Positions 20,309-26,378 of a stretch of DNA of 64,000 nucleotides are shown piece by piece (position 1 is the stretch's first letter; each line of letters begins with the position of its first letter). Made by a program: the position numbers and the translations under genes. The notes under the pieces are model-generated. The model ran no database searches. It saw nothing but the letters and a program-made list of their open reading frames with translations, and was not told where the DNA came from. The stretch is from a virus (Duplodnaviria > Heunggongvirae > Uroviricota > Caudoviricetes): the IMG/VR virus record IMGVR_UViG_2778261505_000002. The stretch is one strand, 5' to 3'.

Positions 20309-20791
20309 TTGGCGGTAATTGTGAAAGCTGATTTGTCAAAAATCCCCTCTATTTCAGGAAATAATGGTTATTCACTTCGTTGTGAGGAAGTAAAGATAAA
20401 CGGTGAGTCGGCATATTGCAGCTACTCCGTTTGCCAGCACACCATTCTTGCCTTCAAAGAAAACCGTCTTCCTCGAACTTCATTCCAGTCGTGCGCAACC
20501 GCTATCAAAGCAGGCAAATGCAAGGCGTTAAAAATGATGGTTGAAGAGATTCGTAAAGGAGAATCTCTGTATTTCGAAGATATGACCGCGCTCATTAAGG
20601 AGGTTGAAGAACGGAATAAACAAGCCAGAACTTTAAAACGAAAACGTGACAGTGTAACGATTAATAGCATGGTTAAGAAGAGCGCCACATCACAAACAGC
20701 GATCACTGACGTGTATGCGGCGTTGCTTGAAGAAACAACAAAAGAAACACATGAGCAAATCGATCAACATATGGAGGTAAAACAACAATGA
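20309..20791 (+). CDS. Hypothetical Cys-rich protein
   Basis: 160-aa ORF; several Cys in the N-terminal half; 3' end overlaps the ligase start. Confidence 0.4.
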   Translation: MAVIVKADLSKIPSISGNNGYSLRCEEVKINGESAYCSYSVCQHTILAFKENRLPRTSFQSCATAIKAGKCKALKMMVEEIRKGESLYFEDMTALIKEVEERNKQARTLKRKRDSVTINSMVKKSATSQTAITDVYAALLEETTKETHEQIDQHMEVKQQ

Positions 20792-22630: not shown

Positions 22631-22921
22631 ATGAGCAATTTAACTTCTTGGGAATGGTGGTTGGCCACCTATTTCTTAGCGGCCGGAGTCGCATTCGCCT
22701 TTTACGTAGGTCAGTTAGTCGTAAAACTGTTGCTGATTAAATTTGCTAGTCATAAACGTATCGATGATGGTCTGTGGCGTCTTGGCACCCTGGTGGAAAC
22801 TCGCTACGGGCAACTTAAGGAGAACGAAACCATTACTATCCAAGCGAAACGATTCACTGCCACCATTACAAGAACACCTAGTCGTAGAGTGGCCTTGATC
22901 AAAAAAGTCACAACCGAATAA
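22631..22921 (+). CDS. Hypothetical membrane protein
   Basis: 96-aa ORF with an N-terminal TM helix. Confidence 0.4.
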   Translation: MSNLTSWEWWLATYFLAAGVAFAFYVGQLVVKLLLIKFASHKRIDDGLWRLGTLVETRYGQLKENETITIQAKRFTATITRTPSRRVALIKKVTTE

Positions 22922-23699
22922 AAACATATTGATAAGTATTTACTTACTTATCTTTTATGTATAAGATGACTTTGTTTTCGTTGAGACGCGACTGTTTGAA
23001 CTTAAATACAAGTGCAAACGAAGAAGTCTATCTGGCAGTAGCCTAATAAGCCAAACACCAGCGAGGTCAGTTTCCAGCCTCGTTACCGAAATGGGACACA
23101 CTGAGCGAGTGTGATTGCAGAACGCAGGAGGGAACATTCATGTTCCCTCCGATGAAGTAACAGAATGGGCGGTTGGTATATTTTCAACTCCATATGACTC
23201 CCGGATTCTTAGCCACTGACCGCCCATCCTGTTACGTCATTTTGTTCAATTATGTCGTTTATACTGGGTTAAAAAGCGGCGACGTAGCCCGGCTGGTATG
23301 GTTAGCCAGCACACAACGTTGAGGCCATTACATTTTTATCAATTCTAAGGTTCTATTCACAGAGATACCGGCGAGCGTTGATATGTAACATGTTGGGCAA
23401 ACATTCAATCGGAGTAGTGGCCTCAACGTTGTGAAGACAGGATTGTTGTGTAGGTTTAACCACTGTTGCCATTGGTGCCTGTTTTCACAACAAATGATTC
23501 CATACATCACATTGTATAAATTACAAAGTAGGTGCTGTCCTCAGAAACATCATCTACTTAAAGATTTTGCCTTCTACTATTGAGCGAAGTCGAAAGCGTC
23601 TGGCACTAACGAAAAGTGCAAGTAGCGGTGCGTTTCCTGGCAGAAACTAAACCGTCGCGATTGGCACTGTTGAGTAATAAATACTGGCAGTGCTGAATT

Positions 23700-23774
23700 G
23701 ATGGTGTAGCTCAGCGGTAGAGCAGTTGGCTGTTAACCAACTGGTCGGTGGTTCGAATCCACCCACCATCGCCA
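23700..23774 (+). tRNA. tRNA-Asn (anticodon GTT)
   Basis: Cloverleaf folded by hand: 7-bp acceptor stem GATGGTG/CACCATC, anticodon loop CTGTTAA, GGTTCGAATCC T-arm, encoded CCA. Confidence 0.85.
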
Positions 23775-23779
23775 ATTTA

Positions 23780-23866
23780 GGGGAGTTAGTCCGTAGAGGT
23801 AGCGGTGTAGACTGTAAATCTACTGTCATTGCGACTCGGGTGGTTCGACTCCATCACTCCCCACCA
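23780..23866 (+). tRNA. tRNA-Tyr (anticodon GTA), long variable arm
   Basis: Acceptor GGGGAGT/ACTCCCC, anticodon stem-loop GTAGA-CTGTAAA-TCTAC, long variable arm, T-loop TTCGACT, CCA; D-arm pairing is atypical. Confidence 0.75.
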
Positions 23867-23870
23867 AATT

Positions 23871-23946
23871 GCCGGTTTAGCTCAGTTGGTAGAGCGCCTG
23901 CCTTGTAAGCAGGATGTCAGCGGTTCGAGTCCGTTAACCGGCACCA
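23871..23946 (+). tRNA. tRNA-Thr (anticodon TGT)
   Basis: Acceptor GCCGGTT/AACCGGC, D-arm GCTCAGTTGGTAGAGC, anticodon loop CTTGTAA, T-loop TTCGAGT, CCA. Confidence 0.85.
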
Positions 23947-24163
23947 ACACAACAGGAAAGAGCATTGAAAACCGCCGAGACTGCCCTGTTTTAAGCGTAA
24001 GTCCGTGCAAACGTCATACAGTGCTCTTTTCGTTGTGGTTGATGCGCAGACTGATGCGCGGAAAGAAATGCCCCAGCGACACACGAGGCGAGTTCACACA
24101 CTGCAATGCAGTCAGTAGCCGGGGTCGCTAAGCCGGAGATCAGTACCGGTAACCACAACAATT

Positions 24164-24250
24164 GGAGAGTAGGGAGCATGGTGCTCAAGCGGTCTTGAAA
24201 ACCGTCCCATTGTGCAAGCGATGATGGTTCGATTCCATTACTCTCCGCCA
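24164..24250 (+). tRNA. tRNA-Ser (anticodon TGA), type II with long variable arm
   Basis: Acceptor GGAGAGT/ACTCTCC, anticodon loop CTTGAAA, 17-nt variable arm, T-loop TTCGATT, CCA. Confidence 0.75.
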
Positions 24251-24405
24251 GACACAGCGTTGAGCGGTTTGGCCTTTTAATCACCCAGATTAAGACTCCG
24301 CTAACATAAACCAGACCGCTCAACGCTGTGATAGACAATTACGGCAGACGTTCTTAACCATAGCTTGCTAACATCCTAGCAACACTTTTTTTCAGCGCAA
24401 AATTC

Positions 24406-24428
24406 AAAGGGGCTTCGGCCCCTTTTTT
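24406..24428 (+). terminator. Rho-independent terminator
   Basis: AAAGGGGC-TTCG-GCCCCTTTTTT: GC stem, tetraloop, T-tract; closes the tRNA cluster. Confidence 0.85.
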
Positions 24429-24471
24429 GCAACTGAAAGAGTCAAGTCTACGAACTTTGTAGGAAGAAATA

Positions 24472-24822
24472 ATGACCAGCAAAGAGAACACACCACTAAA
24501 AGTCACCCCTGAACACATTGAACAACTCATTCAAAGTGAACATTATTTCACTGCATATGATGCCAGCCACGGGGATAACTTCATCTCTGTTTACAATTCA
24601 AAAACAGATATCGACAAAGGTCATGAGTCGTTAAAACTCTTAACGTTCTGCGTTATGGTTCTCAAAAATGGATATACCGTAACGGGAAAATCTGCGTGCG
24701 TAAGACCAGAAATCTTCAACTTTGATGTTGGTCGCGAGTACGCTCGAAAAGATGCTATCGATCAAATCTGGCCCCTGGAAGGCTATCTCCTGAAGCAAAA
24801 GTGGCATGAGGCAAAGCAATGA
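24472..24822 (+). CDS. Hypothetical protein
   Basis: 116-aa ORF; stop overlaps the glutaredoxin start. Confidence 0.45.
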   Translation: MTSKENTPLKVTPEHIEQLIQSEHYFTAYDASHGDNFISVYNSKTDIDKGHESLKLLTFCVMVLKNGYTVTGKSACVRPEIFNFDVGREYARKDAIDQIWPLEGYLLKQKWHEAKQ

Positions 24823-25064
24823 CGATCACTATCTACGGACGAGATAACTGCTCATACTGCAAACGTGCGGTCGAGCTGGCGAAGCAACTAAAGGGACATG
24901 GCTACGGTGATTATGAGTACATCGACATCACCACTGCCGGTATCGACAAGGAAAAACTAAGTGAAATTGTTGGTAAACCGGTAGAGACTATCCCCCAAGT
25001 GCTGATCGATGGCCAACCGATTGGCGGATACACTGAACTGGCTGCATACGTCAGCACCCTCTGA
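24819..25064 (+). CDS. Glutaredoxin (NrdH/NrdC-like redoxin)
   Basis: 81 aa with CSYC redox motif near the N-terminus and TIPQV...G motif; thioredoxin-fold size. Confidence 0.8.
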   Translation: MTITIYGRDNCSYCKRAVELAKQLKGHGYGDYEYIDITTAGIDKEKLSEIVGKPVETIPQVLIDGQPIGGYTELAAYVSTL

Positions 25065-25274: not shown

Positions 25275-26378
25275 ATGAAAAATAGCTTTGACAGAGCACG
25301 CGCTGCGGAGAACACCTCAAAAGAGGCGATTGAGTATCTCGAAAGAGCATCTCAAATGCAGGCCGTTATGATCTCGCAGGTTAGCAATGATATGAGATTC
25401 TCGGACGCATTCATGTTATTTACTCGCTTATCTCTGCTGATAACCAGACGTCGGCCAGAGATCGCTGTTCATTGTATTTTGATACATGTTTTGCCGCACA
25501 TTGCCGATGTAAAAGTAAGTGACATTAATAGGTTCATGGTGAACCAACTGGTCAACCCACTAATACTGGATGGCAAAATTGTTATGGGCCGCCGCGTTTT
25601 CTCTCTGATGAAGCAGTTCCTTAGCTGGTGCGCCTTCCAGGGGATGATAGACGTGTCACCGTTAAACGATATGTCACTTAACAAAGTTGCCGGTGGCGCA
25701 AAGCCCACACCTCGCGAGCGGAAGCTGACCGACGCAGAGGTATGGGTGTTCTGGAATATATGGGACTACTTCAATGTGTGCGCTGGTACAAAATGGGCGG
25801 CCAGGCTGTGTCTTGTATCCGCAAGACGACCTGACGAAGTACTGCGGGCTAAAAAAAGTGAGTTCAATCTTAAGCGTGGGGTTTGGAATCAAGGCAAGAG
25901 GAACAAATCTGCCCGTGAGCATTCGCTGCCTTTAAGCACATTAATGCGCACATGTATTGAAGAGTTGTTCGAATACGGTAAAGGCAGCCAGTGGCTCGTG
26001 CCTTCGAATAAAAAAATCGGGAAAGACCTTCCTATGTCTAAAGTGGCAATAGCCCAGGCATTACGTCGTATTCTGGAACGACCAGAACTGATGGAGCTTG
26101 AGCCATTTACACCCCGAGACTTGCGCCGTACTGCGCGTAGTTACTTCCCAGCATTAGGCATAAGCCAGGAGGTATCACGTAAAATCATGAACCACAGTCT
26201 TGAGGGGATAGATCGAGTCTACGACCGGCACGATTATATGGACGAGATGCGAGACGCCTTAGAAAGTTTCTCGACGTACATCGCATCAATCGTAGAGCAA
26301 CCGGATTTAGACGAAATTGACCACAAATTCAAGGGAGATCGTCTATCAACAGAGCTTATTCGTGTAAATTTTTCATAG
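25275..26378 (+). CDS. Tyrosine site-specific recombinase (integrase or resolvase)
   Basis: C-terminal catalytic-domain pattern (…RRPDEV…, FTPRDLRRTARSY, MNHSLEGIDRVYDRHDY) consistent with the R-H-R-Y signature. Confidence 0.7.
   Translation: MKNSFDRARAAENTSKEAIEYLERASQMQAVMISQVSNDMRFSDAFMLFTRLSLLITRRRPEIAVHCILIHVLPHIADVKVSDINRFMVNQLVNPLILDGKIVMGRRVFSLMKQFLSWCAFQGMIDVSPLNDMSLNKVAGGAKPTPRERKLTDAEVWVFWNIWDYFNVCAGTKWAARLCLVSARRPDEVLRAKKSEFNLKRGVWNQGKRNKSAREHSLPLSTLMRTCIEELFEYGKGSQWLVPSNKKIGKDLPMSKVAIAQALRRILERPELMELEPFTPRDLRRTARSYFPALGISQEVSRKIMNHSLEGIDRVYDRHDYMDEMRDALESFSTYIASIVEQPDLDEIDHKFKGDRLSTELIRVNFS

Follow-up and report, generated by a model that had tools for sequence, protein, structure and literature searches.

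The stretch of DNA analyzed here (the window) comprises 64,000 nucleotides (nt) of a tailed virus of the class Caudoviricetes (IMG/VR record IMGVR_UViG_2778261505_000002), and the subject of this report is an RNA encoded on its plus strand, upstream of a cluster of four tRNA genes. The E. coli plasmid CP056788 is identical to the window across 22900-24450 (100%), the phages Cyrano and CMS-2020a are 97 to 99% identical to it over the same interval, and from its sequence, the locus is interpreted as the stable-RNA operon of an SSU5-like phage-plasmid. The initial annotation had described the DNA around the tRNA genes as structured and noncoding, possibly representing processing signals, small RNAs, or degraded tRNAs. 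The first two of these suggestions went in the right direction but overlooked what appears to be a conserved gene for an RNA resembling transfer-messenger RNA (tmRNA) at the 5′ end of the upstream ~750 nt (22974-23113 and onward), while the third found no support, as ARAGORN, Rfam searches (E ≤ 10), and a T-arm regular-expression search of the spacers were all negative. By definition, a tmRNA combines a tRNA half and an mRNA half, either in one molecule or in two pieces of one gene. The RNA described here belongs to a widespread, unannotated phage RNA family that we read as a tmRNA variant with the mRNA-like half only.

The lead was a distant BLAST search in which 22922-23699 matched unannotated DNA of unrelated phages over ~22962-23116, including Felix O1-like myoviruses, HK620, Klebsiella siphophages, and Aeromonas phage pIS4-A; in those phages, the matches are co-oriented with nearby tRNA genes or fall inside a late-operon leader. 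Within this conserved block, the plus strand at 23014-23049 carries the frame GCA AAC GAA GAA GTC TAT CTG GCA GTA GCC (ANEEVYLAVA) followed by TAA TAA, a tag frame supported by both sequence and conservation; for comparison, the tag frame of E. coli tmRNA is GCA AAC GAC GAA AAC TAC GCT TTA GCA GCT TAA TAA (ANDENYALAA). The region around the resume codon aligns with the Rfam tmRNA consensus AAAAAUAAuUGCaAACgA (alignment AAAGAUAAAU GCAAACGA...), an A at position -4 of the resume codon is kept in all groups, and an A-rich upstream element of the kind that sets the frame in tmRNA (U85/A86 in E. coli) appears to be present. Variation in the frame was assessed in 46 unique segments spanning positions -9 to +42, collected from two IMG/VR pattern scans and from GenBank phage loci. 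In 45 of these, the stop comes after exactly ten sense codons, summed entropy at codon positions 1, 2, and 3 was 3.74, 3.54, and 8.15, respectively, and synonymous codon differences numbered 497 in the tag frame versus 41 and 137 in the two alternative frames, both of which contain stops. Codon 11 is variously TAA, TGA, or TAG, and the triplet after it varies freely. The 17 peptide variants differ conservatively and take the form AN[DE]x..[LMV][AV]A (for example, ANEEMYLAVA, ANDNVFLAVA, ANDEQFLAVA, and ANEDTYLAVA), with ANDDLMMVAA in P1, ANDDLMMAAA in P7, ANDDVVLMAA in Bp4 and Pollock, and ANDDLMLAAA in pAh6-C. The frame, in short, starts at a resume codon rather than a start codon and evolves as coding sequence, a pattern that reads as the signature of a tmRNA tag template. 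The same coding behavior would be expected of a conventional gene for a small protein of 10 to 11 amino acids with normal initiation, but neither an AUG, GUG, or UUG start nor a Shine-Dalgarno sequence was found at the tag frame, the start region reads CUGCAA in SSU5 and pJN2-26, and an in-frame UAA precedes the frame by three codons in Felix-type copies, all of which makes an ordinary small-protein gene about as improbable as any explanation considered here. An overlapping AUG/GUG frame (MQTKK...) was likewise rejected, as its start is lost in SSU5 and pJN2-26, its changes are radical, and it contains internal stops.

The tag frame runs into a set of helices supported by covariation. A hairpin resembling helix 5 of tmRNA, also represented in the covariance model R1 described below, occupies 23032-23061 on the plus strand, with CUGG (23032-23035) paired to CCAG (23058-23061) and the stop codons in its apical part. 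It is followed on the same strand by pseudoknot a (23062-23096), which consists of the stem CGAGG (23062-23066)/CCUCG (23078-23082) and the loop pairing UUCC (23072-23075):GGGA (23093-23096), and by stem 1 of pseudoknot b (23097-23113), CACAC (23097-23101)/GUGUG (23109-23113); a second stem of pseudoknot b (GCCC/GGGC and longer versions) occurs in other lineages only. These three structures were tested on 54 cores, all from outside the SSU5-like group. In these sequences, the outer part of the helix-5-like hairpin is invariant and the inner part 92.6% paired, and pairing reaches 100% in both helices of pseudoknot a (3 compensatory pairs in the stem, 2 in the loop helix) and in stem 1 of pseudoknot b (2 compensatory pairs). 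Overall, 98.4% of cells are paired, compared with 33 to 40% when partners are slid, and double-sided changes occur in 91 cells versus 25.8 ± 6.5 in shuffles (0 of 500); CCAG, CCGA, and CCAA in the loop, for example, are accompanied by CUGG, UCGG, and UUGG. The SSU5-like sequences covary as well, with CGAGG/CCUCG versus CAGGG/CCCUG in the stem of pseudoknot a, UUCC:GGGA versus UUCC:GGAA versus CUCC:GGAG in its loop, and CACAC/GUGUG versus CAGAC/GUCUG in stem 1 of pseudoknot b. Model R1, built from non-SSU5-like members only, matches the window copy at 23002-23133 (73.5 bits, E = 2.2e-14) and the divergent copies in P1, P7, and Bp4 (43 to 44 bits), with no match in the E. coli ssrA locus or in 51 unrelated bacterial contigs. 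The arrangement typical of a tmRNA, a helix 5 containing the stop codon with pseudoknots 3′ of the tag, is present in the phage RNA.

BLAST searches with the core retrieved 317 and 254 phage records (with two queries) as well as 773 plasmids. Among the carriers are SSU5-like and P1-like phage-plasmids, Felixounavirus, Vi01-like Ackermannviridae, Gamaleyavirus and Pollockvirus (N4-like), siphophages of Klebsiella, Enterobacter, and Aeromonas, and lambdoid phages or prophages of the HK620 and HK633 types. Among complete E. coli genomes, 350 of 5,426 (~6%) have a copy, at 219 places on plasmids and 141 on chromosomes, the latter including the Q-to-holin leader of an O26 prophage. The element is found in unrelated phage families and contexts without a conserved protein neighbor, and it has no RNA annotation in any of the 25 listed E. 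coli copies or in the phage records inspected. A contig scan with the pattern AAACACCAGNNNGGTN{2,4}TTCC proved too loose, all 120 of its matches being due to chance. Decay of a captured ssrA fragment, spreading by recombination along with tRNA cassettes, would fit the modular, mosaic composition of these loci, whose modules are common to unrelated phages, and would also fit variant L293, which has lost the stop codon and has a changed 5′ seed (see below). Such a pseudogene is very improbable, given that the frame is under purifying selection, that three helices show compensatory changes, and that the element has been retained by at least eight phage lineages and is present in the E. coli genomes counted above. 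Another alternative is that the element is merely the structured leader or spacer of a tRNA operon, providing stability or stems for processing by RNase III, E, or P, with its likeness to tmRNA being without function. The strong same-strand association with tRNA genes is in keeping with this, as is the recurrence of CACAAC...GUUGUG hairpins between RNA genes and the dispensability in relatives of the 217-bp module discussed below, but the core is kept in phages without tRNAs (HK620, KpV2811, and the late leaders of lambdoid prophages), and both the coding-type constraint and the antisense arm described below would be left unexplained; we consider this explanation rather improbable.

Several of these settings merit description in their own right. 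The copies in lambdoid prophages sit between the Q antiterminator gene with pR′ and the holin gene (O26 RM8426, L317, 2501-2678; HK620, L004, 2440-2830), and from this position the element would join the short constitutive late-leader transcript, in the place of lambda 6S RNA. In P1 (L297, AF234173), the segment at 809-910, termed a 'dicF-like region' by the depositors, has a terminator at its end, immediately before the tmRNA-like element, and both lie in the leader of the C1-controlled ban operon, upstream of tRNA-Asn and tRNA-Thr. Structured noncoding RNAs beside tRNA genes have precedents in the stable RNAs C and D of the T4 tRNA cluster and in the phage-associated ROOL and GOLLD RNAs. The element resembles these in being a structured RNA co-located with phage tRNA genes but differs in having no Rfam match, while those RNAs have neither a tag frame nor complementarity to tmRNA. 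Consistent with this, GOLLD, ROOL, and other Rfam noncoding RNAs gave no match at E ≤ 10 in window 22800-24500.

The likeness to one-piece tmRNA (SsrA, RF00023) extends over the A-rich region with A at -4, the GCA resume codon, the 10-codon AN[DE]... tag with its small or hydrophobic end, the stop codon in a helix-5-like hairpin, and the H-type pseudoknots downstream. Unlike one-piece tmRNA, the phage RNA is phage-borne, usually within tRNA clusters, has two pseudoknots rather than the three of E. coli, and carries 5′ of the resume codon ~40 to 55 nt that are antisense to tmRNA in place of P2 and pseudoknot 1 (PK1). It also lacks an acceptor stem, T-arm, and CCA, and for this reason it cannot be charged. 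No CGAAAAC-N-CCA acceptor strand is present, and the tRNA-like domain of a tmRNA is missing. ARAGORN detected no tmRNA in the window, where a T-arm search returned only the four tRNAs, and there was no tRNA or tmRNA in the remaining 47.6 kb of the CP056788 plasmid and no tRNA, tmRNA, or T-arm in the complete genomes of two other carriers, HK620 (38 kb) and KpV2811 (46 kb). KpV2811 keeps only a 25-nt tRNA remnant; the sequence at 20703-20728 (L230) corresponds to the last ~25 nt of its relatives' tRNA-Met (TTCGAATCCTGTCGCGGGAACCA), the tRNAs having been deleted and the tmRNA-like element and promoter retained. Across 22930-23699 and 23947-24163, no tRNA, tmRNA, or other Rfam family was matched at E ≤ 10, aside from one weak match to beta_tmRNA at 22995-23097 (17.3 bits). 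Rfam tmRNA models score the element at 11 to 17 bits, below the gathering score of 47, and tmRNA_permuted scores it at 20 to 29 bits, low values that are explained by the absence of the remainder of the tmRNA.

These tmRNA_permuted matches, weak as they are, raise the question of whether the element could belong to a two-piece (permuted) tmRNA as its coding piece, with an acceptor piece located elsewhere or too aberrant to recognize. Two-piece tmRNA (RF04321), known from alpha- and some betaproteobacteria and cyanobacteria, is similar in that a tag-coding RNA needs a separate acceptor RNA, but there a single gene gives rise to both pieces, with the 5′ acceptor strand on the coding piece, whereas the phage replicon has no acceptor piece and the 5′ end of the phage RNA pairs with the tag region of host tmRNA. 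In Moogle, ARAGORN does call a 749-nt permuted tmRNA with the tag ANDNVFLAVA, a call that explains the mention of 'ssrA' for Felix O1 and Moogle in two genome announcements (PMC4319497, PMC4392139). The acceptor piece in this call is a permuted tRNA-like gene located 620 nt upstream of the tag, with three tRNAs and a promoter intervening. This gene covaries, but it is confined to Felix-like phages, lacks G3:U70, and pairs with itself and not with the 5′ end of the element. No upstream acceptor piece able to pair with the 5′ end of the coding piece, as in a true two-piece tmRNA, was found in the window, and neither a T-arm nor an acceptor candidate was found in the complete genomes of HK620 and KpV2811 or in the CP056788 plasmid. 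A two-piece tmRNA is, on balance, decidedly improbable. The permuted tRNA-like gene itself (wV8, L005, ~1995-2050; Moogle, L056, minus strand, ~2510-2440) consists of a T-arm and 3′ acceptor strand (with CCA as well in Moogle), a 2- to 8-nt linker, and a 5′ acceptor strand with a D-arm, and its acceptor variants covary (ACTCGGC/GTCGAGT, ACCCTTC/GAAGGGT, and ACACGTT/GGCGTGT).

The 5′ end of the phage RNA points to a different source for the missing half. A promoter-like element can be read from the plus strand at 22939-22967 (-35 TTTACT, 22939-22944; 17-nt spacer; -10 TAAGAT, 22962-22967). This block is kept in SSU5-like relatives, pJN2-26 having TATGAT at the same place, and promoters of other lineages (TTGACA-17-TAGATT in KpV2811 and TTGACA-17-TATAGT in wV8) lie at the same distance from a GUUUUCG motif. 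The promoters of three lineages independently put the start of transcription at this motif, and in the window, transcription would begin near it, at G22974. Located 40 to 55 nt before the resume codon, GUUUUCG hardly varies among ~100 variants and is perfectly complementary to E. coli tmRNA nt 98-104 (97-104 if the next U is counted), within tag codons 3 to 5. The arm of the window copy, predicted to be antisense to host tmRNA, extends over 22974-22997 on the plus strand. Its first block, GUUUUCGUUG (22974-22983), is complementary to E. coli tmRNA nt 95-104 (tag codons 2 to 5), and its second, GCGACUGUUU (22988-22997), to nt 82-91, which include the determinant U85/A86 as well as G90 and C91 of the resume codon; the predicted duplex has 20 bp and a free energy (ΔG) of -26.3 kcal/mol. 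By a rough estimate, two colinear 10-bp blocks would be expected by chance far less than once. The long arms of KpV2811, HK620, P1 and P7, Bp4, Pollock, Vi01, and related phages form 36 to 43 bp with tmRNA nt 53/54 to 106/107, spanning the 3′ half of pseudoknot 1, the A-rich linker, U85/A86, the resume codon, and codons 1 to 6, with ΔG values of -41 to -49 kcal/mol (z of -4 to -6).

Across 65 unique arms, the best duplex site lies within tmRNA nt 50-112 for 60. When reverse-complemented, the arm agrees with tmRNA at 34 to 40 of 41 to 43 aligned positions in the long arms, at 23 of 25 in wV8, and at 18 of 23 in the window (nt 82-104), and similarity of the arm to the sense strand of the element itself is far below this. 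The 5′ motif was also considered as a partner of the element's own tag and rejected: in 38 variants, the mean perfect run is 8.8 nt to host tmRNA versus 4.9 nt to the own tag, the mean ΔG is -12.1 versus -6.3, and the host duplex is the better one in 36 of 38. These pairings come from k-mer and arm-only analyses, as full-length runs of duplexfold gave meaningless global duplexes. A metagenome scan with GCAAACGACGAAAACTATGC for Aeromonas and Klebsiella tmRNAs returned only other proteobacterial tmRNAs (tag ANDENYAQGALAA) and chance matches in a protein-coding gene. Trans-acting antisense small RNAs of the RybB and OmrA/B type recognize their targets through a 5′-terminal seed. The phage RNA is like them in having a conserved, predicted 5′-terminal stretch that is a perfect complement of a single-stranded host RNA target, and unlike them in that the target is tmRNA rather than an mRNA, the complementarity extends over 20 to 43 bp, and the RNA has a reading frame of its own.

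Given these observations, we propose that the first product of the operon would be a tmRNA-derived RNA, composed of an A-rich resume region, a 10-codon start-less tag, a stop-in-loop helix, and two pseudoknots, whose 5′ arm would dock it onto host Ala-tmRNA-SmpB. Since the frame is entered without initiation, Ala-tmRNA-SmpB would be needed, and the only tRNA-like domain available is that of the host. The docked arm would mask the frame-setting nucleotides, resume codon, and first tag codons of the host tmRNA, while the resume site and tag frame of the phage RNA, emerging next to pseudoknot 1, would be presented in their place. Stalled ribosomes could then be rescued on the phage template, with proteins receiving a tag ending in ...LAVA instead of ...ALAA; the minimum outcome would be that host tagging is blocked. 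The precursor would yield the four tRNAs through the action of RNase P and 3′ trimming. That the arm docks on host tmRNA in vivo with any effect, whether by replacing the tag or at least by blocking it, is in our judgment evenly poised between true and false, and a true tag swap, in which the pairing substitutes the phage's own tag template and reprograms trans-translation, is advanced tentatively, as a plausible outcome that falls a little short of even.

A number of points weigh against this proposal. The promoter of the window matches the consensus at just 8 of 12 positions, a weakness that explains why a strict scan left it unreported; the arm of the window is short (20 bp), with a duplex energy just z = -1.8 relative to shuffles; and the minimum-energy fold has the first 8 nt paired to the start of the tag in the RNA itself. 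Five of the 65 arms, for example that of Aeromonas phage pAh6-C, miss the canonical E. coli tmRNA site beyond the seed, and some tag variants end in ...AA like normal degrons. We know of no precedent for a tag template supplied in trans, and the host target, which lies partly within pseudoknot 1, has SmpB bound to it on the ribosome. RNase III might instead cut a duplex of 40 bp.

Some of the same evidence would be accommodated by a pure antisense inhibitor of host tmRNA, in which the tag-like part is untranslated and serves as a mimic (a decoy for SmpB, S1, or RNase R) or as a cis mask of the arm. The extensive complementarity of the arms to tmRNA nt 53-106 and the ability of the seed in the window to pair with its own tag start are as expected for such an inhibitor, and phage interference with trans-translation has been described before, in that mycobacteriophage DS6A has a tmRNA without a tag that is reported to inhibit the endogenous tmRNA (PMC11915505). 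It is hard to explain, however, why an untranslated sequence would show third-position variability, a fixed length of ten codons, stops of all three kinds at codon 11, and conservative changes, and self-pairing as a cis mask is weak and without covariation. We consider a pure inhibitor unlikely, if less so than the other alternatives discussed above. The DS6A RNA is also a parallel to the RNA of the dock-and-replace proposal: it is likewise a partial tmRNA encoded by a phage and reported to interfere with trans-translation in the host, and it is the mirror image of the RNA described here, keeping the tRNA-like domain without the tag where the phage RNA does the reverse (PMC11915505). In the literature available in full text without subscription, no tmRNA-like RNA without a tRNA-like domain and no natural anti-tmRNA RNA is described, and in the tmRNA database paper of 2025 just the converse, the tag-less tmRNA of DS6A, is mentioned (PMC11915505).

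The remainder of the operon largely agrees with the initial annotation. On the plus strand, a DNA ligase gene and small open reading frames (ORFs), the last one ending at 22921, lie on the 5′ side, and the next gene begins at 24472. Apart from spurious ones overlapping the tRNAs, the ORFs of the region encode at most 60 amino acids, and the equivalent ~750 bp in Cyrano, SSU5, and pJN2-26 is unannotated or has only dubious small ORFs. The four tRNAs had been placed correctly, and ARAGORN calls exactly these four, all on the plus strand: tRNA-Asn(GUU; gtt) at 23700-23774, tRNA-Tyr(GUA; gta) at 23780-23866, tRNA-Thr(UGU; tgt) at 23871-23946, and the class II tRNA-Ser(UGA; tga) at 24164-24250. Infernal searches with Rfam models agreed, with no tRNA calls in the spacers. 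The Rfam gathering score was reached by three of the four (Asn, 75.5 bits; Tyr, 41.6 bits; Thr, 74.9 bits, on the tRNA model), while tRNA-Ser is supported by ARAGORN and by its best Rfam model, tRNA-Sec, at 44.3 bits, under the gathering score of 47. The cluster had also been described as ending in a strong terminator. Two terminator-like hairpins can indeed be read from the plus strand, one at 24365-24392 (TTGCTA/TAGCAA and a T run) and one at 24409-24428 (GGGGC-TTCG-GCCCC and T6), but they lie 115 to 180 nt past tRNA-Ser and not directly after it, and a consensus terminator scan missed both. In P7 (L296, 2051-2137), there is an unannotated tRNA-Ser(UGA) nearly identical to that of the window, preceded, as in the 217-bp gap between tRNA-Thr and tRNA-Ser of the window, by a GAUGCG...CCGGAGAU.CAG...CCACCACAAC domain.

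The inverted repeats reported in the initial annotation are real, with one adjustment, and others can be added. The perfect hairpin at 23127-23150 (arms 23127-23137/23140-23150, 11 nt, 100%) is a short M helix on the plus strand (GGAGGGAACAU/AUGUUCCCUCC) that covaries, with 5 compensatory pairs among SSU5-like relatives, and is the short version of a module (CAGGUAAGAGCA[insert]UGCUCUUUCCG) that follows pseudoknot b in all lineages and is common to unrelated phages. Three further hairpins on the plus strand, at 23152-23240 (a helix of ~27 bp), 23250-23287, and 23291-23311, are supported by inverted repeats and by RNAalifold as conserved in 16 SSU5-like sequences; the first contains a newly recognized 22-nt repeat (23152-23173/23219-23240). 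The 15-bp repeat previously given as 23313-23327/23409-23423 exists, as 20 nt at 95% (23312-23331/23414-23433), but its second arm had been placed ~10 nt too far 5′. It closes a long plus-strand hairpin, CACAACGUUGAGGCCA...UGGCCUCAACGUUGUG (23312-23433), which is also in the RNAalifold consensus and shows compensation in the 16 SSU5-like leaders (GC in 8 and AU in 8 at one position, CG/UA at the next), and an alternative inverted-repeat hairpin on the same strand at 23428-23491 shares its GUUGUG strand. In the SSU5-like alignment, the rest of the plus-strand leader up to tRNA-Asn (23492-23699) is conserved, with the blocks AAUGAUUCCAUACAUC and CGUCUGGCAC..GUGCAAGU, and the spacing from tag to tRNA-Asn is 634 to 687 nt across 18 SSU5-like loci. 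Relative to shuffles, the folding energy has z = -4.95 for 22974-23245 and z = -2.46 for 23944-24163.

The 217-bp gap had been said to lack a cloverleaf, and neither Rfam at E ≤ 10 nor ARAGORN finds a tRNA in 23947-24163. Inverted repeats on its plus strand instead give an M helix, CACAACAGGAAAGAGCA...UGCUCUUUUCGUUGUGG (23948-24040, within 23941-24163, where we note the additional repeat 23941-23967/24019-24045), and a domain closed by GUUGUGGUU/AACCACAAC (24032-24040/24151-24159, likewise additional). The gap is homologous to a segment 3′ of the tmRNA-like core in HK620 and to a P7 spacer, and its absence from Cyrano and many close relatives marks it as accessory. The repeat that had been noted after tRNA-Ser at 24253-24268/24315-24330 was recovered as 24253-24272/24311-24330 (20 nt, 95%) and forms a plus-strand hairpin of the CACARC...GYUGUG type, CACAGCGUUGAGCGGUUUGG/CCAGACCGCUCAACGCUGUG (24253-24330). 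Each GUUGUG strand is able to pair with a CACAAC on either side, upstream or downstream, and the CACAAC...GUUGUG hairpins and the 217-bp gap are probably processing or alternative-folding stems of one precursor. A recurrent CACAAC...GUUGUG module (core AAGAGCA/UGCUCUU) with variable inserts separates RNA genes in many unrelated phages, with copies in the window at 23127-23150, 23312-23433, 23941-24045, and 24253-24330, in P7 (L296, 1607-1672), and in Moogle (L056). P7 and Moogle have the same insert, and some inserts contain a T-arm-like GGGUUCGAGUCCC (Carvaje, L006, ~2640-2700).

Other genes of these replicons were noted in passing. A plus-strand ORF for a tyrosine-integrase-like protein of 367 amino acids lies ~1 kb downstream of the RNA cluster (25275-26378), adjoins a glutaredoxin gene (24819-25064), and has a counterpart annotated 'Integrase' in Cyrano. 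Outside the window, the CP056788 phage-plasmid carries a full-length metG (methionyl-tRNA synthetase) and apbC at 79486-82777 (L303), as well as a type I restriction-modification system and rnhA.

If the proposal is correct, phages would manipulate ribosome rescue by means of an RNA that has only the mRNA half and an arm against host tmRNA, which would be both the first natural anti-tmRNA RNA and the first trans-acting tag template. Proteins with phage-specified tags are a prediction that can be tested by proteomics. Such an RNA would also provide a natural tool to retarget or block trans-translation, a drug target, and would assign a function to unexplained noncoding DNA in phage tRNA clusters, including those of P1 and Felix O1. 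The data presented here suggest that many enterobacterial phages, among them P1, Felix O1, Vi01, and N4-like, HK620-type, and SSU5-like phages, tamper with ribosome rescue.

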